Translations under genes and position numbers: made by a program
The notes under the pieces: generated by a model
Database searches by the model: none
The model's input: the letters and a program-made list of their open reading frames with translations, nothing else
Told to the model about the DNA's origin: nothing
Part shown: positions 16,443-51,439 of the stretch, piece after piece
Position numbering within the stretch: position 1 is the stretch's first letter
How the letters are laid out: each line of letters opens with the position of its first letter
From: a phage
DNA length: 64,000 bases
Assembly: GCA_020381345.1 (NCBI GenBank)
Contig: GCA_020381345.1_3636.1
Direction: 5' to 3' (one strand)

Positions 16443-16904
16443 CTACTTAAACAACAGTTCAAAATAGTGCAAAATTAACAGAAGTTGAATTACGCCTAGC
16501 ACAACAGCAAGTATGTTAATCTTAGAATCAAAAAACTTCTTAACTTTTACCCTAAAAGGTTCCTTAATGTCCTTTACGATCCTATCTATAGATGACCTCA
16601 TATCCCTGATTACCATCCTGAACATTAAAGACGGATGATCCCTCTCTGTAACGGAATCGAAAACATACTCTCTTTGATCACAAGGGCCGCCAGCTCTGCG
16701 TATTAACCTCTCCACAGAGACCTCGTACGACACACCTGTAACGTAATCATCTATGACAAGGAGTGACGGGTCTTTATCGTCCAAGGGTATCAAAGTTATC
16801 TTTCCAGATTTTGTTAAAATTTCTCCTTTTTCAAGTAAGGTGTACCAATGCTCTCTGCCAAGACTGTTGAGGCACGTTTTTACATATTTAACAAACATCG
16901 TCAC
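16443..16904 (-). CDS. hypothetical protein with C-terminal TM helix (153 aa)
   Basis: ORF track; C-terminal ILAVVLGVIQLLLIL. Confidence 0.5.
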   Translation of the reverse strand: MTMFVKYVKTCLNSLGREHWYTLLEKGEILTKSGKITLIPLDDKDPSLLVIDDYVTGVSYEVSVERLIRRAGGPCDQREYVFDSVTERDHPSLMFRMVIRDMRSSIDRIVKDIKEPFRVKVKKFFDSKINILAVVLGVIQLLLILHYFELLFK

Positions 16905-17104
16905 CCCTCATCGCACGTCTGATATAACCACTCTATAAAATCTTGATACCATTCGCCCTCTGAGCGCTCCGTAGGCCAATAATCTTCACCCTCTCGTGCA
17001 TTAAAATCTGAGTATTCAACTTTCCACTCCTTTACCAGCTCGTGGAGAAGGTTTTCAGCCTGCTCTAAAGATTTATTTTTTGCCATTGCTGTCTCCTTTT
17101 TCAA
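16901..17104 (-). CDS. hypothetical acidic protein (67 aa)
   Basis: ORF track. Confidence 0.45.
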   Translation of the reverse strand: MKKETAMAKNKSLEQAENLLHELVKEWKVEYSDFNAREGEDYWPTERSEGEWYQDFIEWLYQTCDEG

Positions 17105-17305
17105 GATAGTTATACATCAGAACTGCACCACCTAAGATGGCTACCAGTAACAATACCCCAGATAGCATCTCAATAAACATGGCTTGAAACACTGGAAGGT
17201 CTCCCTAAATTAACGCACCATTTTAAATACATGCTCTTTTCCCATAAAGGTGCCTGGCTAAGATCTGCGTAGAACGCAATCTCTTTAAGAACAGTATAAA
17301 CAGTT

Positions 17306-21334: not shown

Positions 21335-21437
21335 ACTATCTCCTTCTCCTTGTCTTGTCCGATAATAATATCTAAAGCTTACCTGTTTGTCAACAACTGT
21401 TTTAGATATTTAAGGGTGGAATAACCACCCTTCTGTA

Positions 21438-22226
21438 TTACTCGGAAACAGGGGTCCAAATATGATTTGCACGATCCTCTATAAGATTGAGAGCAATCTG
21501 ACGACCCAACCCGGAACGAACGACATCGTCTGGACTATCAAAGCTGATCATTCCAACCTCGGGATCTGGATGACGAGTAAAGAAATCCGTCACCCATGCA
21601 AGGCCAGATTTACCAGGGATGTCACGTTGACTATTATCGCCCATAATTACAAGGGTGGCCTGATCAGAGATCCTTGTAATAATTGACAACATTTCTTCAG
21701 GGTTAGTTTGCTGTGCCTCGTCAATCAGGACAAAGCATCGCTCATCGAAACTACGACCACGAATGCTTTCAACTTCACAAATCTCGATACGGCTGTTCTG
21801 ACCATCTCCCAGCATTGCGGCAAAAGCACCTTTGCCAACACGACGACAAATAGTGTCCATCATGCTTCGAAGATAGGGCCACAGTTTTTGCATTGCATTC
21901 CCTGGTTTAAATCCTGAAGTCTTTCCTGTCTGAACGTAAGGACGTGCAACAATGATCTTATCAATCTCGTTCTTACGCAGAAGATCACCTGCATATGCAG
22001 ATGCCATGAATGTCTTACCGGATCCAAACACACCGTTTACAATAATAATCTTACGTGACCCTAGATAATCAAGATACTTTTGCTGCTTCTTATTCATTGG
22101 TCGGAGAGCTGGAGCAGTGTGCTCTCTTTCGTCAGCAAATTTCTCAGCAGCCTTACGCAGGCGATCAGATTTGCGAGCCTCTCTAGCTTCATCACGCATG
22201 CGTTTTGTTTCTTTAGCTCGACCCAT
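21438..22226 (-). CDS. phoH: PhoH-like ATPase (262 aa)
   Basis: Walker A GVFGSGKTF plus LIDEAQ Walker-B-like box. Confidence 0.8.
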   Translation of the reverse strand: MGRAKETKRMRDEAREARKSDRLRKAAEKFADEREHTAPALRPMNKKQQKYLDYLGSRKIIIVNGVFGSGKTFMASAYAGDLLRKNEIDKIIVARPYVQTGKTSGFKPGNAMQKLWPYLRSMMDTICRRVGKGAFAAMLGDGQNSRIEICEVESIRGRSFDERCFVLIDEAQQTNPEEMLSIITRISDQATLVIMGDNSQRDIPGKSGLAWVTDFFTRHPDPEVGMISFDSPDDVVRSGLGRQIALNLIEDRANHIWTPVSE

Positions 22227-22787: not shown

Positions 22788-23261
22788 TTAGTCAACCTGA
22801 ACCCAACCGCCTGCTACTTTTTTAAACATTCTTTGGTTATCGCTACCTCGGAACGGTTTCTTGGTTGGTAAATCTTTTACATACTTACCGTCAATGATGA
22901 TATCAGCCAGTTTAAGAACATCACTAGAGATATGGTCAAATGTGAACCCAGTATATACAAGAATAGTTTTCTTGTCACCAAATTTTTCCTTAATTTTCTC
23001 CATCAGGCTAATAATATCTGGCTCATTATAGTATGCTAAGGGTTCTCCACCCAGCAGAGAGATACCACCCACAGACGGGTTATCTAAATCTGACAAGATT
23101 TTTTGCAAGTCTTCTTCAGTGAACTCTCTTCCCTTATCTTTTGACCAAAATGCCTGATTAAAGCAACCAGGGCAAGCGTGTGGGCACCCAGATACCCACA
23201 AGGCAGTTCTAATACCTGGCCCTTCGGTGTAAGATATTTCTGTGTATCCGGCAATGTTCAT
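22788..23261 (-). CDS. nrdG: anaerobic ribonucleotide reductase activating protein NrdG (157 aa)
   Basis: Radical-SAM cysteine cluster CPHACPGC; lies next to nrdD. Confidence 0.8.
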   Translation of the reverse strand: MNIAGYTEISYTEGPGIRTALWVSGCPHACPGCFNQAFWSKDKGREFTEEDLQKILSDLDNPSVGGISLLGGEPLAYYNEPDIISLMEKIKEKFGDKKTILVYTGFTFDHISSDVLKLADIIIDGKYVKDLPTKKPFRGSDNQRMFKKVAGGWVQVD

Positions 23262-23426
23262 AGATACTCCGCATCACATTTAGGGCAATGCCAAATAAAA
23301 TCGTCCAGTGCCTTGCACCAACGAAGATTGCAACGACAACCACACTTGCAAATTTTATAAATACCTTTAGACATATTGTACCTCCTTAGTTTATAGCATG
23401 TTTAAGATATGTGTATCTTTCTACGA

Positions 23427-24446
23427 TCATTTACCACAGATCTCTTTGTATGCTGCTTCCACTATGCTAAACACTTCAGGTCTGTAGTGAAAGAATTCAG
23501 TGCTTCCACTAAATGCTTTAGAGAAGTTTATTTTATACTTATTGAAGGCTTCATGCACAGATTTTTCTACACTCAGTATGTTTTCAGTCGATCCGCCCCA
23601 TGTTTTTACTATGTGGAGATCATAAATACCTGCACCAGCCTTCTTGGATGCTCTTAATATCCTTCCCTTCCTCGCTTCTACATTGACGCTCACACCGATC
23701 TTCATAAGTGTTGGCGCTTCTAAGTTATCAACCATGAGGTAAAGCTTCCCATAGTTGTGAGATAAGAAACCGTTTTTGGCACATTTAGGGCATCCACGAC
23801 CAGACAGGTGGCAAGAAGGTGTCTGGGTGAAGTGATTTCCACAAGTGTTGCAGATTATCTCTACCTTATCTTCGCAAGTCATATAATCTATAAAAGAGTA
23901 GTCATATTTATCGCCATGGATTTCTTTGGCTCTTTCTATGAATTCAGGGCCTTTATTCCTTTTTGCTGCGCTAATGAGTTTACTACACTCAGGGCACCCT
24001 TGGCCTTTCAAATGGTTAGATGGGGATTGCAAGAACACTCCGTGCTCAGGGCATACAATTTTTACAGGAGTTTTATAGTTAACATATCCAACCTTAGAAT
24101 AATCATAGGTGTCACCGTGGATTTTTACAAATTTTTTGATAATATCACTAGAATCGTTTCTAAGCTTATTGCCTACTGGCACTCTACCACACTTAGGACA
24201 CCCACTACCGTCAAGGGTATGATGTCCAGCGATCTGCGTAAACTCACCATGAACAGGGCATACAATTACAACCTTACTTTTAGCAGTTTTATATACGGTT
24301 TTTGAATAGTCATATTTATCGCCATGTACTTCTCTAGCTCTTTTTGTAAATTCTTCAGTCGTAAGTTGTTTTCCTCTAGGCATCTTTGATCCCTCTTGGT
24401 TCTCATAGATTAGCCAAGTATGCCACATCCTTGTGGCTTCTGTCAA
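23427..24446 (-). CDS. free-standing endonuclease-like protein with three zinc-ribbon repeats and GIY-YIG-like C-terminal domain
   Basis: Three ~50-aa repeats HGDKYDYS..CPxHGxF..GxGCPKC; C-terminal GKLYLMVDN..MKIGVSVNVEARKGR; inserted between nrdD and nrdG; likely start at internal MPRGK. Confidence 0.55.
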   Translation of the reverse strand: MTEATRMWHTWLIYENQEGSKMPRGKQLTTEEFTKRAREVHGDKYDYSKTVYKTAKSKVVIVCPVHGEFTQIAGHHTLDGSGCPKCGRVPVGNKLRNDSSDIIKKFVKIHGDTYDYSKVGYVNYKTPVKIVCPEHGVFLQSPSNHLKGQGCPECSKLISAAKRNKGPEFIERAKEIHGDKYDYSFIDYMTCEDKVEIICNTCGNHFTQTPSCHLSGRGCPKCAKNGFLSHNYGKLYLMVDNLEAPTLMKIGVSVNVEARKGRILRASKKAGAGIYDLHIVKTWGGSTENILSVEKSVHEAFNKYKINFSKAFSGSTEFFHYRPEVFSIVEAAYKEICGK

Positions 24447-24449
24447 GTA

Positions 24450-25412
24450 TCAGCAACTACAACTTCCATAGTGCTTAACCCGTTCTATAACTTCCGCTTG
24501 CTTACCTTTATTGTAAGGACGGGAGTTAGGACTGGAAAGGTATCCAGACACACGTCGAATTACACTGATCGTTCCCTCTTCATGGTTTCCACACTCTGGA
24601 CATACAAAGCCTCTAGCTGTTGCACTGAACTCACCAGAGAAACCACACTTGAGACATTTATCCACAGGCTGGTTGATACCAAAATACATAATGTGTTTAT
24701 ATCCGAAATCAACAAGAGCTTCCAAAGCATCTAAGTTGTTTTTCAGATTTGGTGTCTCTACGTATCCGATGTTGCCACCAGAGGAGATCATAGCAAAACC
24801 TTCCTCATACTCCCACTTATCAAAAGGAGAGCTATTGATCCATACTGGCTGATGGAAACTGTTGGTGAGATATTCATGCTCGTGCTTCAACACTTCAGGA
24901 TATTCACGATCCAGACAGGTTGCAGCTTTATAGCATAGACTCTCAGAAGGGGTGCCGTACAAGCTAAACGCTAGTCTACTTTCCTTCTTGTATCTCTCAC
25001 AAGCATCTCTCATGTGCTGAAGTATTCCAAGAGCTAAAGCCTTGTCACCCTCCCTGCCCAAAATCTGACAGGTTTCATACACACCAATATACCCAATACT
25101 GATGGAAGCGTACCCGTCATAGAAGAGTTTATCAATACTCTCTTCAGGGTCCAGGCGAGCAAGAGCGCCTTCACACCACATGATAGGGTTCTGCCCTGCC
25201 TTTGTCCCTTTTAGACGATTAACCCTTACAAGGTGAGCCTCGTATGCAAGATCCAGGTATTCGTCAAGAACTGCAAAGAAATCAACACCTTCCGTCTTAG
25301 CTTTTGCCGCAATCATTGGCAAGTTAAGGCTAACAACACCCAAGTTGAATCTGCCAAGGTATTTCTCCTCGCCTGTTACAGGGTCGCTATATTTCGATAA
25401 GAAACTTCTACA
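24450..25412 (-). CDS. nrdD: anaerobic ribonucleoside-triphosphate reductase NrdD, exon 3 of 3
   Basis: Starts CRSFLSKY and ends with glycyl-radical motif RRVSGYL; the track prefix MDLRTTLNIM is intron read-through. Confidence 0.8.
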   Translation of the reverse strand, partial: CRSFLSKYSDPVTGEEKYLGRFNLGVVSLNLPMIAAKAKTEGVDFFAVLDEYLDLAYEAHLVRVNRLKGTKAGQNPIMWCEGALARLDPEESIDKLFYDGYASISIGYIGVYETCQILGREGDKALALGILQHMRDACERYKKESRLAFSLYGTPSESLCYKAATCLDREYPEVLKHEHEYLTNSFHQPVWINSSPFDKWEYEEGFAMISSGGNIGYVETPNLKNNLDALEALVDFGYKHIMYFGINQPVDKCLKCGFSGEFSATARGFVCPECGNHEEGTISVIRRVSGYLSSPNSRPYNKGKQAEVIERVKHYGSCSC

Positions 25413-26174
25413 CATTATGTTCAGGGTGGTTCGCAAGTCCACCCCCGCACCTTTACGTGCTGCTGCATGTTCCCATGCAGATCAGACTATATCTTCACAC
25501 TTAGTGTGTCTACCATTTCGAGTGTCATCGGCTTACACCCTACACCGCTACATTCATCACGGTTAGTCGTTAGGCATTTCGTAACAGAACTCGTAATCAT
25601 AGTTATTAGGCGCACCACGTTTCAGGATAGCAGATATTCTTTTTCTATCCACTCCTAAAACATCAGCACAACATCTCAGACTTTTAAAGTGGAAAACCTC
25701 ACCAGTTAATTTGTTGGTGGCTTTCACACCGTGGCATCTTGTGTAAAAAGCATAACAGTTGTTGTTGTATCCTTCTTGCGTATTGTCTGGGCAAGCTCCC
25801 CACTCAAGGTTGTATACACTGTTATCTTTCCTGTTGTCCCCTTTGTGCTTAACATAGGGTAAATTGTCTGGATTTGGTAAGAACGCTTCAGCAACAAGTC
25901 TGTGAACCCTTAGGCAAACAGTCTTTTTGTTCTTGCGTATCCTAACAAGACGGTAACCTGTGTTTATCTCTTCCCACGAATGAATAATTCTTTCATTTTC
26001 GTAGCGGGTGCAATAAACATTGCCCATCTCGTCAATTTCATAACCTTCAAAATCACGAATTTGTTTTCTCATTTCAGGACTCCTCTTGGTCAGGAGTTCT
26101 GTTACGTTTAGCACGGGATTGTCCGTTCTGGAGTTTCCCCGTTTAGATAGATTTTACATGAGCAGTTATAGTTT
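25413..26174 (-). mobile_element. group I intron (nrdD intron 2) carrying an HNH homing endonuclease ORF
   Basis: 762-bp insertion between in-frame exons; exon ends in U and intron ends in G; contains CTAAACGGGG and ACAATCCCGTGCTAAA elements and a 3' block GATATAGTCTGATCTGCATGGGAACATGCAGC. Confidence 0.7.
25563..26072 (-). CDS. HNH homing endonuclease (intron-encoded, about 169 aa)
   Basis: HNH region RVHRLVAEAF..KHKGDNRKDNSVYNLEWG; RBS AGGAG before internal ATG; frame differs from nrdD. Confidence 0.7.
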   Translation of the reverse strand: MRKQIRDFEGYEIDEMGNVYCTRYENERIIHSWEEINTGYRLVRIRKNKKTVCLRVHRLVAEAFLPNPDNLPYVKHKGDNRKDNSVYNLEWGACPDNTQEGYNNNCYAFYTRCHGVKATNKLTGEVFHFKSLRCCADVLGVDRKRISAILKRGAPNNYDYEFCYEMPND

Positions 26175-26474
26175 ACCCATGCTCGTTACTTTACCATCTG
26201 TCGAGCCTGTCACTTTACGATTTAGTGGAACAGAGACAAAGTCAGGATAAATCCGCTCTGCAGAGCATTCCAGAGCTAATAGTTTCAAATCATAGTTAGG
26301 ATCTCCAGGGTTCATGTTGACACCCTCTTCTAGGAAGAACAGCACTTTAGGGAACACAGGTGTGATACGTTCTTCACCAAGACCCATTTTGTGGACTTTC
26401 AAGTAGTTTTTGGTAATCATTCTACCAAATACTGAGGTGTCCAGACCTAAACTTAATGTGATAAAAGGGGTTTG
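26175..26474 (-). CDS. nrdD: anaerobic ribonucleoside-triphosphate reductase NrdD, exon 2 of 3
   Basis: In-frame translation QTPFITLSLGLDTS..VFPKV..GDPNYDLKLLALECS..KVTGS..SMG matches the middle of E. coli NrdD. Confidence 0.75.
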
Positions 26475-26731
26475 CGGTCCCCACCCTTATGTTTCCACAA
26501 GGCCAGACTATCTCTTGCCTGAAATCACACCGTGTGATTCTTAATCAGACCTCTGCGTTTCGGAATCTTCCATAATCCCTACACCAAAAGGTTAGTCGTT
26601 ACAACCGCCTCACTCCTTGTGAAGCTAGTCACGGGATTGGCATAGCTTTCGCCTTAGCGTTCCCCGTTAGCCAGCGATCAGCTGACCCCTCATACTGAGG
26701 TTAGCAGAGTTTTAAAACGGCCAGTTTGTTA
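26475..26731 (-). ncRNA. group I intron (nrdD intron 1), ORF-less, about 257 nt
   Basis: Separates exon 1 (..NTLTSVNG) from exon 2 (QTPF..); the apparent exon 1 stop TAA is the intron start; GCCGTT near the intron 5' end can pair with exon end AACGGU; 3' end AGATAGTCTGG resembles the other introns. Confidence 0.6.
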
Positions 26732-27592
26732 ACCGTTGACAGAAGTTAACGTATTGATTTGATAGAGCAAAGTCTGCATGCTGTCAAACACGTCTTTATC
26801 TGTCATTTGCATTGCAACAGTCTCAGCATCTGGCAACCAATGTTCCTGGCAAAATTTAAGGTTCTTCTCATAGGTTGCTTCAGCATACTGTGCCAGATAA
26901 TGATCAATATGGCTCATAGTCTGACCACCATATTGAGCACTAGCTACCGCACTAGAGATTTGACTAAGGATTGTTGTTGCAACCCCTATTGACTTCGGCT
27001 TACTGACATGGGCGTTACCAATGTTGAATCCGTTTTCCAACATATCTGGATAATTTACCAAACAACAGTTTGTTAACGGACTGATCAAGTAGTCAAGATC
27101 ATGCACATGGATGAAGCCTCTATTGTGCTCTTCTGAGACACGGTCTGGCAGGATCTGTGTTGATGCAAGGTGTTTGCTAAGGATGCCTGCAAGCAGGTCA
27201 CGATGAGTGTGTACATGATTGGTAGGCTTATTTGCGTTTTCTTTTGTAAATTCATCACAAGTGCGATCCAAGAAGCCACTAATATCTGCAAGCAGTTTTC
27301 CACCTGCCTCTCTGTTATTATCTCTTGTCTGCCTATACTGGATGTATTCTCTGGCTGCACATTTTAAACCCATATCCATAAGAGCGTCTTCAACAAGGAT
27401 ATGGATATTTTTTACAGAGATCGTGCACTGGTCGGTTGGTAGATTGTTAGCAACAACTTCATTAACCGCGCAGGCGATCCGGTAAGCTTCTTCTTCAGTA
27501 TGTCCAGACTCAAGTAAGGCGGACTCTGCCGCCTTGATCACCTTAATTCCGTTATAGAACTCTTCTCTACCGTCCCGTTTTACAACTTTCAC
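26732..27592 (-). CDS. nrdD: anaerobic ribonucleoside-triphosphate reductase NrdD, exon 1 of 3
   Basis: N-terminal ATP-cone-like region MKVVKRDGREE and HRDLLAGI..HDLDY match class III RNR. Confidence 0.8.
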
Positions 27593-27867
27593 TTTTTCTC
27601 TCCAAAACCATTCTTAACAAAAGAGATGAAATCATCGGCACCGCCTATATGGGCACTTTCAAGATTACTTTCTAAGAAGATCTGCGGCAACGTTCTGGGT
27701 ACGATTGGACTGCACTTCTCAATAAGCTCTTCTTTTGTGTAACCCTCGCCAAGTGTCTTATATACAAAAGGCAGACCTTTACTGACTGCAAATTCTTTTG
27801 CTCTTACACAATGTGGGCAGTTATCTTTACCGTAAATAATAAAGAAAAAAGATTTTTCACAGCTCAT
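27589..27867 (-). CDS. glutaredoxin-like protein (92 aa)
   Basis: CPHC active-site motif after a beta-strand (IIYGKDNCPHC). Confidence 0.65.
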   Translation of the reverse strand: MSCEKSFFFIIYGKDNCPHCVRAKEFAVSKGLPFVYKTLGEGYTKEELIEKCSPIVPRTLPQIFLESNLESAHIGGADDFISFVKNGFGEKK

Positions 27868-50499: not shown

Positions 50500-50574
50500 G
50501 CCCTGTTAGCTTAGTGGATAAAGCAGCGGCCTTCTAAGCCGTTGACACTGGTTCGAGTCCAGTACGGGGTGCCA
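50500..50574 (+). tRNA. tRNA-Arg (anticodon TCT)
   Basis: Hand-folded cloverleaf: acceptor GCCCTGT/ACGGGGT, anticodon loop CTTCTAA, T-loop TTCGAGT, encoded CCA. Confidence 0.7.
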
Positions 50575-50704
50575 AGTTCTTTTTAATGTAGCTTACTTTA
50601 GCAGAGTAAATCTTCGGCAAGTGGCGGTAACCACTTTACCGATACCTCATAGTTAGTGGTGAGAACACTAGCTATTTTAAAAAGAATTTAAATATTAGTA
50701 TTTA

Positions 50705-50792
50705 GGTGAGTTAATTCCGTAGGGGTAGCGGGGCAGACTGTAAATCTGTTATCATTGCGATTCGGGTGGTTCGACTCCATCACTCACCACCA
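50705..50792 (+). tRNA. tRNA-Tyr (anticodon GTA), long variable arm
   Basis: Acceptor GGTGAGT/ACTCACC, anticodon loop CTGTAAA, T-loop TTCGACT, CCA; 88 nt. Confidence 0.6.
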
Positions 50793-50906
50793 AATTTATA
50801 TTTTTAAATGCATAAATCATACAGATAATGGCATTGATATTTATCGTCGTTTATACTAGTCACTAACTGCTCGAAAATCAGTGTCATTATCAGTATTGTT
50901 TATAAA

Positions 50907-50997
50907 AGAGGGTAGGGAGCAATGGTGCTCAAGCGGTCTTGAAAACCGTCCCGTTGAGGATTACTCGATGATGGTTCGATTCCATTATCCTCTGCCA
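50907..50997 (+). tRNA. tRNA-Ser (anticodon TGA), type II
   Basis: Acceptor AGAGGGT/ATCCTCT, anticodon loop CTTGAAA, T-loop TTCGATT, CCA; 91 nt. Confidence 0.6.
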
Positions 50998-51095
50998 TAT
51001 TGTTGACCTTGTAATTAAGCGAAAGCCGGAAGCAGAACCGGATTATCAAATGTTACAGTCGTCATCGCCGACTAGCAACATGGTCAACATACTGA

Positions 51096-51192
51096 GCTAG
51101 GTAAGCCCTTTGGCAAGGGCGAGGATTTTTAATCCTGAAAATAGACGAGGTAGTCGTTGAATACATAGGTGGTTCGATTCCATCACCTAGCA
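51096..51192 (+). tRNA. atypical tRNA-like element (97 nt), anticodon uncertain
   Basis: Acceptor GCTAGGT/ACCTAGC, D-arm GCCC/GGGC, T-arm GGTGG-TTCGATT-CCATC, but non-canonical anticodon arm, 29-nt extra arm, A at position 8, no CCA. Confidence 0.35.
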
Positions 51193-51199
51193 CCTTTTT

Positions 51200-51275
51200 G
51201 CTGATGTAGCACAATTGGTAGTGCAATTGATTTGTAATCAATAGGTTGCAGGTTCAAGTCCTGCCATCAGCACCA
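51200..51275 (+). tRNA. tRNA-Thr (anticodon TGT)
   Basis: Acceptor GCTGATG/CATCAGC, anticodon loop TTTGTAA, T-loop TTCAAGT, CCA. Confidence 0.7.
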
Positions 51276-51276
51276 T

Positions 51277-51351
51277 GGCCCTGTAGCTGGAAGGTTCAAG
51301 CAAGCGACTCATAATCGCCAGACGGTGGTTCAATTCCACCCAGGGCCACCA
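51277..51351 (+). tRNA. tRNA-Met or Ile2 (anticodon CAT)
   Basis: Acceptor GGCCCTG/CAGGGCC, anticodon loop CTCATAA, T-arm GGTGG-TTCAATT-CCACC, CCA; D-stem weak. Confidence 0.55.
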
Positions 51352-51362
51352 AATAATGAATA

Positions 51363-51439
51363 CTCCGCGTAGCTCAGCTTGGTAGAGCGCCTGATTTGGG
51401 ATCAGGAGGTCGAGTGTTCGAATCACTCCGTGGAGACCA
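51363..51439 (+). tRNA. tRNA-Pro (anticodon TGG)
   Basis: Acceptor CTCCGCG/CGTGGAG, D-arm GCTC-AGCTTGGTA-GAGC, anticodon loop TTTGGGA, T-loop TTCGAAT, CCA. Confidence 0.7.

Follow-up and report, generated by a model that had tools for sequence, protein, structure and literature searches.

T5orf172 putative homing endonucleases (gp53, gp121, gp130, gp165 and gp174) have been described in Vibrio phage ICP1 and others (Netter et al., 2021, PMC8096241; Barth, Dunham and Seed, 2023, PMC10448857). In this class, 200 of 229 genes carry CapR, DUF723 or DUF4379 fingers (the last mostly printed as DUF4397 in that paper), often repeated as "beads on a string"; domains swap between the genes, their presence varies among ICP1 isolates and they are located at genetic-exchange boundaries (PMC10448857). 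Here, we describe a gene at 23427..24383 on the minus strand of a 64,000-nucleotide (nt) phage contig (GenBank assembly GCA_020381345.1, contig GCA_020381345.1_3636.1), the whole of which we call the window. We judge it, with a probability of roughly 0.7, to be a free-standing T5orf172-class homing endonuclease gene in an rV5-like Vequintavirus, for which we infer both nuclease activity and homing.

The gene resembles those of ICP1 in its N-terminal finger repeats and C-terminal T5orf172 domain, its variable presence, its conserved-gene neighbours, its place at tract boundaries and the shuffling of its modules. It differs in its host lineage, an E. coli Vequintavirus, and in its locus between nrdD and a unit of a 38-amino-acid (aa) open reading frame (orf38) and nrdG; the nuclease domain is only ~21% identical to the ICP1 gp88 and gp121 sequences. 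The features by which Barth et al. (2023) recognise the class are found here, namely CapR/DUF723/DUF4379 fingers at one terminus with T5orf172 at the other, variable presence among close relatives with insertion near conserved genes (nrdD, nrdG), and a position at genetic-exchange boundaries with flanking co-conversion. The gene is thus an ordinary further member of the known T5orf172 homing-endonuclease class.

With Odn (ICP1 gp88; PMC8263062), the one T5orf172 nuclease with a biochemical characterisation in the literature cited here, the protein shares a C-terminal T5orf172 domain in which the Tyr, Lys-x-Gly, Arg, catalytic Glu and distal Glu are conserved in alignment. Odn, however, binds DNA through a RepA_N domain and acts by destroying the replication origin of a satellite, whereas the window protein has three zinc-finger modules and belongs to a site-specific cassette. 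Unlike in I-TevI, I-TevII and SegA-G, the nuclease is C-terminal (the order is reversed) and reads K-I-G, not Y-I-G. An earlier note on this DNA had called the domain order unusual; it is in fact standard for T5orf172 homing endonucleases (PMC10448857, PMC8096241) and unusual only against I-TevI/Seg. The protein falls outside the canonical GIY-YIG type, defined by an N-terminal GIY-(10-11 aa)-YIG domain that matches PF01541 and by DNA-binding modules of the NUMOD/HTH type at the C-terminus. It likewise falls outside the CapR-type domesticated repressors, which have a CapR finger without a nuclease, as a complete T5orf172 domain is present.

Nuclease domain and zinc-finger array

The open reading frame (ORF) reported in the earlier note is present at 23427..24446 of the minus strand (339 aa when read from a TTG), and both strings quoted from it, GKLYLMVDN and MKIGVSVNVEARKGR, stand in the translation. 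The TTG at 24446 opens a promoter-like TTGACA hexamer that lies directly past the nrdD stop (24450..24452). An ATG at 24383 is preferred because a ribosome-binding sequence lies upstream (AAGAGGGA at 24390..24397, with a 6-nt spacer, as read from the sequence) and homologues in other phages align from there. The start is therefore likely this ATG, giving a gene at 23427..24383 and a protein of 318 aa.

The GIY-YIG-like features that had been noticed at the C-terminus correspond to T5orf172/MUG113, a nuclease family of the GIY-YIG clan, both by Pfam profile search and by the fold of the model. For the whole protein, T5orf172 (PF10544) scores 26.5 bits against a cut-off of 20 (9.3e-6) and MUG113 (PF13455) 28.2 bits against 22.3 (2.9e-6). 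The isolated domain reaches 29.2 bits with T5orf172 and 28.5 bits with MUG113, and 14 of the 15 aligned homologues match as well. PHROG 681 ("endonuclease", 3.5e-67) covers residues 27-334 of the 339-aa ORF. The Pfam GIY-YIG model (PF01541) does not match the protein at E<=0.1; the second motif reads LY-x12-KIG, with Lys where the second Tyr stands in GIY-YIG. Neither NCBIfam nor PADLOC holds a family for this protein.

Modelled alone, the C-terminal domain (mean predicted local distance difference test score, pLDDT, 94.2; predicted template modelling score, pTM, 0.85) has a three-stranded sheet flanked by helices, as in the GIY-YIG alpha/beta fold. Y215, K228, G230, R238, E273, H277, F291, G293, E296 and F298 are invariant across 16 homologues. 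R238 and E273 would provide the catalytic Arg and Glu of such nucleases (R/E180 in Odn; R27/E75 in I-TevI), and E273 shares an alignment column with Odn E180 when the retrieved ICP1 gp88 sequence is aligned. Odn with the E180A mutation no longer cleaves, either in vitro or in vivo (PMC8263062). Sequence and model together place the fold and catalytic residues of an active T5orf172/GIY-YIG nuclease in the window protein; from these we infer the activity itself.

When the PDB was searched by sequence, neither the whole-protein profile nor that of the nuclease domain found a meaningful nuclease match; the sole match was a DUF4379 mitoribosome assembly factor aligned to a zinc finger. The C-terminal domain alone found no matches in a word-indexed homologue search, and an exhaustive single-sequence phmmer search with it returned only 25 cluster representatives among 1.8 billion. 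The phmmer count indicates that the domain belongs to a narrow sub-branch of T5orf172. The ratio of nonsynonymous to synonymous differences per site (pN/pS) of the nuclease domain against the allele of phage navn is 0.38, pointing to long-term purifying selection.

The N-terminal two thirds of the protein form a zinc-finger array. Its three repeats had been described earlier as tandem ~50-aa zinc ribbons; their number holds, while the period is ~67 aa and Pfam places them with treble clefs, not zinc ribbons. The HGD anchors stand at residues 20, 89 and 156, and the core of each repeat, from HGD to CxxC, measures ~46 aa. Each repeat has one CxxH or CxxC knuckle and one GCPxC knuckle, and at the nucleotide level any two repeats are 53-59% identical. 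DUF4379 ("probable treble clef zinc finger", 1.4e-9) and DUF723 (5.5e-9) match above their gathering scores; CapR matches below it (1.5e-3; 19.1 vs 24.2 bits). The whole-protein AlphaFold model, built from a 16-sequence alignment, has a mean pLDDT of 85 and a pTM of 0.42, a low value that is expected because the modules are independent and sit on linkers. In the model, the repeats consist of a helix, a beta-hairpin and a short helix, and in repeats 2 and 3 a helix begins at the last CxxC, the second knuckle. Pfam found no NUMOD or helix-turn-helix DNA-binding region, and we assign DNA binding to the N-terminal zinc fingers. In CapR, the zinc-finger cysteines are needed for DNA binding (PMC8096241).

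DUF723-type arrays of up to six or seven repeats are also fused to another C-terminal nuclease-like domain in the metagenomic proteins P0030, P0047 and P0106; in P0030 and P0047 this domain is annotated DUF559 / very-short-patch-repair endonuclease (DUF559/Vsr-like, PF04480). This suggests that the zinc-finger array is a portable DNA-targeting module common to several nuclease families.

Insertion site, alleles and recombinant tract

The window phage is assigned to Vequintavirus as an rV5-like coliphage, and the 5-kb region around the gene matches 304 phage records. Comparison by BLAST and MAFFT with RudolfGeigy, Murica, Gotham, FFH2, rV5 and DrSchubert, in which the site is empty, delimits a cassette of 1032 base pairs (bp) at 23387..24418. 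The cassette takes the place of ~22 nt, TATTATTGACACACAGTGAGCT, of the empty-site relatives; this sequence was looked for in the window and is absent. On the left, a shared CATA leaves the exact boundary ambiguous. With a 421-bp query representing the empty site, 120 records were found. In 68 of these, a single segment matches at least 80% of the query; among the remaining matches, some span the site with a shorter match, and ~26 of the 120 are split, that is, occupied. Absence from relatives had been proposed earlier as a check, and the gene is indeed missing in most close relatives, with clean insertion boundaries. Together with the domain searches and the modelled fold, this supports the original description as a free-standing endonuclease-like gene.

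The insertion point coincides with a predicted promoter. A consensus scan gives 10/12 matches with TG ahead of the -10 element, and the record of phage Gotham annotates a predicted promoter at the same place. The -35 element and the spacer are resident phage sequence, and the -10 element straddles the insertion junction; the bases after the spacer read CATATT in empty genomes and CATACT in the window. The spacer holds the inverted repeat GCCACA-AGGA-TGTGGC (24422..24437).

The allele of the window was found in a single database record, phiWec189 (BDU13544.1; 97.9% aa identity by tblastn). Other occupants of the site are 47-52% identical to the window protein. T5orf172 homing endonucleases are abundant, with tblastn matches to the protein in 1002 phage records. 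All examined occupants (navn, JEP1, WalterGehring, Mangalyan, SophiaRose and O157 typing phage 14) share insertion point and orientation, and most of them share the 3' end of the gene and the downstream (3') junction. The domain plan, too, is common to the proteins of the window, phiWec189, WalterGehring, SophiaRose, navn, JEP1 and Mangalyan. Annotations differ: WalterGehring bas51_0186 is a "putative homing endonuclease" and SophiaRose_117 a "putative GIY-YIG nuclease family protein", and the copies of phiWec189, navn (navn_83), JEP1 (JEP1_174) and Mangalyan (Mangalyan_119) are each a "hypothetical protein".

At least five alleles occupy the site, with three or four modules that differ in number, type and order. 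Two module types occur among them, HGDKYDYS...CPxHG and NPxVEILEEI...CRCKxC. The Mangalyan array is composed of WalterGehring modules 1-2 (96% identity) and JEP1 modules 2-3 (87-95%). One all-Cys module, "CNTCGNHF", stands third in the window and in SophiaRose, second in WalterGehring and first in JEP1; the copy in the window has 72% identity to that of WalterGehring and 59% to that of JEP1. The navn allele has its own terminator-like hairpin and a TTGACT-N17-TATAGT element (terminator and promoter), and the last nrdD codons are rewritten.

The gene also lies in a mosaic tract. In a three-way alignment of the window, navn and phiWec189, we scored the sites at which navn and phiWec189 differ and profiled identity in 100-bp bins. 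The window is phiWec189-like at 23439..24651 (~420 informative sites) and navn-like on both sides, at 23351..23408 (9/9 sites) and at 24669..27700, including a 100% identical HNH element in nrdD. Parental affinity therefore switches at 23408/23439 and at 24651/24669, on both sides of the gene. This ~1.2-kb patch has one crossover at the gene's conserved 3' end and a second within nrdD, as would be expected of co-conversion during homing or of replacement of a resident allele.

More than 20 records of the MG0656xx series ("Campylobacter phage A142, A141, C2, D1 ...", labelled C. jejuni) match this E. coli Vequintavirus region at 93-96% identity, and the navn-type endonuclease allele is found in several of them. 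Their Campylobacter host label looks doubtful and may reflect mislabelling or contamination.

Proposed mechanism and alternative explanations

We propose that the gene would be transcribed either together with the orf38-nrdG unit or from that unit's promoter. Its zinc-finger array would bind an extended DNA sequence in a related phage genome without this allele, the candidate target lying most likely at or close to the 3' end of nrdD or in the nrdD-nrdG intergenic region, and the tethered T5orf172 domain would cut near the bound site. In a mixed infection, recombinational repair from the carrier genome would then copy the cassette and some flank into the cut genome. The carrier might escape cutting because its ~22-bp empty-site sequence has been removed or split by the insertion.

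The allele series might further be read as a natural experiment in modular DNA recognition. Each ~65-aa module would read a short sub-site, and alleles would displace their rivals by cutting rival-allele genomes as well as empty sites; the window itself resembles a navn-type genome in which the phiWec189 type has taken the place of the resident allele. The shared "CNTCGNHF" module would anchor its carriers (all examined occupants but navn) to a common nrdD-nrdG sub-site. We regard this extension as speculative and rather doubtful. If it is true, a recognition code for a compact zinc-finger array tied to a GIY-YIG nuclease could be worked out.

Several points weigh against an active homing endonuclease. 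No T5orf172 homing endonuclease has had its homing verified by experiment (PMC10448857). The mosaic tract could have arisen by ordinary homologous recombination that involved no cut by this enzyme, and the promoter is a match to the consensus alone. The nrdD patch at 24551..24611 (VCPECGNHEEGT vs CCPACGCHDEQY) was considered as a target or immunity signature and rejected, as both haplotypes occur with and without the endonuclease gene: that of the window is the commonest and is found in many empty-site genomes (rV5, FFH2, DrSchubert), and the other accompanies the gene in navn, JEP1 and SophiaRose and occurs without it in Murica and RudolfGeigy. Finally, six of the seven differences between the window and phiWec189 genes are nonsynonymous and one is synonymous, which is compatible with relaxed constraint, although a count of seven is too small for an estimate of selection. 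A homing endonuclease that is in decay or already inactive, which once homed here, no longer cleaves and persists until deletion, would fit this excess, as well as the rarity of the allele (1 of ~120 related records) and the frequent degeneration of such genes in ICP1 (PMC10448857). We nevertheless consider decay unlikely. The ORF is full length in both the window and phiWec189, none of the six substitutions (T56I, G99E, I165V, I269M, A290V and A311V) falls at a zinc ligand or an invariant nuclease residue, and the gene lies within a discrete recent conversion tract.

The exact position of the insertion at a predicted promoter raises the question of whether the protein is mainly a sequence-specific DNA-binding regulator of the CapR or I-TevI autorepressor type, acting on orf38/nrdG or on itself at the promoter it interrupts. 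Its modules share homology with CapR, which arose from this gene family and is a proven repressor of transcription (PMC8096241), and I-TevI is a precedent for combined nuclease and repressor roles (PMC10448857). Yet CapR has no nuclease domain, whereas the T5orf172 domain is complete here with all invariant residues; most relatives do without the gene, and regulation does not account for its presence/absence pattern and the turnover of alleles at one site. We therefore hold a mainly regulatory role to be quite improbable. Least probable, and by our estimate very improbable indeed, is a phage weapon against a satellite or competing element with an array aimed at foreign DNA. To our knowledge, there is no satellite target for rV5-like phages. 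Odn is a T5orf172 nuclease with exactly such a role (PMC8263062), and related T5orf172 proteins are many and fast-diversifying. The specificity of Odn, however, comes from a RepA_N domain copied from its target, whereas the array here is of the generic homing-endonuclease type; PADLOC gave no defence family match, and both the site-specific behaviour of the cassette and the conversion tract are in keeping with homing.

As a candidate homing endonuclease gene, the locus corrects the annotation of its closest database relative, phiWec189, which labels the gene "hypothetical protein". Carriers (e.g., WalterGehring) and empty-site phages (RudolfGeigy, Murica) grow on E. coli K-12 and have flanks that are >95% identical, making the locus a tractable E. 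coli system in which T5orf172 homing and modular zinc-finger specificity could be tested directly for the first time. The result also accounts for local mosaicism that complicates phylogenies of these therapeutic-candidate phages.

Neighbouring genes and other insertions

Coordinates of the gene, its parts and its neighbours are collected in Table 1.

Table 1. Features of the endonuclease locus in the window; all are on the minus strand.
Feature	Position	Strand	Basis
CDS, T5orf172 homing-endonuclease-like protein, 318 aa + stop	23427..24383	minus	ORF list, ribosome-binding site, homologue alignment, Pfam, PHROG
Shine-Dalgarno-like AAGAGGGA, 6 nt 5' of the ATG	24390..24397	minus	sequence
Zinc-finger module 1, aa 1-65, ligands C42, H45, C62, C65	24189..24383	minus	repeat alignment, Pfam DUF723/CapR match, module table
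Zinc-finger module 2, aa 66-133, ligands C111, H114, C130, C133	23985..24188	minus	repeat alignment, module table, AlphaFold (AF2) model
Zinc-finger module 3, aa 134-201, all-Cys ligands C178, C181, C198, C201	23781..23984	minus	best Pfam DUF4379 stretch, module table
C-terminal T5orf172/MUG113 nuclease domain, GIY-YIG superfamily, aa 202-318	23430..23780	minus	
Inserted cassette, 1032 bp	23387..24418	minus	BLAST and MAFFT against empty-site relatives
phiWec189-like tract (endonuclease gene and last ~200 bp of nrdD), putative gene-conversion tract	23439..24651	minus	informative sites, identity profile
Promoter-like site (prediction): TTGACA, 18-nt spacer, CATACT	24417..24446	minus	consensus scan, Gotham record, junction alignment
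nrdD last exon (glycyl-radical domain and C-terminal zinc ribbon), upstream neighbour	24450..25404	minus	Pfam NRDD 1.4e-84, Gly_radical; boundaries by comparison with relatives
Conserved 38-aa Cys-rich ORF, orf38 (MSKGIYKICKCGCRCNLRWCKALDDFIWHCPKCDAEYL), downstream neighbour	23258..23374	minus	sequence; annotated in RudolfGeigy, navn, JEP1, FFH2, DrSchubert
nrdG, activase of anaerobic ribonucleotide reductase	22788..23261	minus	Pfam Fer4_12 7.3e-43, Radical_SAM

The gene had been placed between nrdD and nrdG. The upstream neighbour is indeed nrdD; downstream, orf38 intervenes, so nrdG is not the immediate neighbour. Present in every relative examined, orf38 overlaps the nrdG start by 4 nt and has a strong AGGAGG ribosome-binding site. 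Its cysteines follow the pattern CxC, CxC, C, CxxC, and a Pfam search with it gave no match; it may encode a small zinc-binding partner of NrdG/NrdD. A terminator-like hairpin lies inside orf38 (23305-23321), where the Murica record annotates a terminator. Between orf38 and nrdG, WalterGehring, Mangalyan, rV5 and DrSchubert carry a further pair of small ORFs, one of 35 aa and one of 78 aa; the longer is annotated "putative minor capsid protein". The window (~23258-23262) has neither. These ORFs are another insertion-deletion polymorphism in the same short region.

Within nrdD, the zinc-ribbon codons at 24551-24611 occur as two haplotypes, GFVCPECGNHEEGT and GFCCPACGCHDEQY, with ~20 substitutions in 60 nt and 7-8 amino-acid changes. 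They segregate among otherwise 95-100% identical Vequintavirus nrdD, independently of the presence of the endonuclease gene.

Two further insertions interrupt nrdD itself. A 257-nt insertion without an ORF splits the gene at 26476-26732 (minus); it is present in RudolfGeigy, navn and SophiaRose and not in phiWec189 and Murica, in which nrdD is uninterrupted (2124 bp). An Rfam group I intron model spans it in full, below the gathering score (29.2 vs 50 bits), and the BASEL annotators joined RudolfGeigy nrdD from two pieces. The second insertion (~770 nt, 25405-26174, minus) holds an HNH/I-HmuI-like endonuclease ORF at 25563-26114 (PHROG 59, 1.9e-33), with the 3' part of a group I intron just downstream of it (25463-25568, 35.3 bits, sub-threshold). 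This element is 100% identical in navn and absent from phiWec189, RudolfGeigy and Murica. With the T5orf172 cassette, there are therefore three selfish insertions in or beside nrdD. At the gathering threshold, Rfam found no RNA element in the region, the sub-threshold group I intron matches lying only within nrdD and not at the endonuclease gene. A search of the window for further T5orf172 copies found none; a weak match at 16904..17116 (E 0.003) has no Pfam support.

Farther from the gene, the phoH region (21400-22050) is also polymorphic: the phoH allele of navn and SophiaRose has ~50-65% DNA identity to that of the window and most relatives. Just beyond phoH, navn (~930 bp) and SophiaRose (a second "GIY-YIG nuclease family protein") have an extra gene, which the window does not have. 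Six tRNA genes, all above the Rfam gathering score, are clustered at 50500-51436 (plus).

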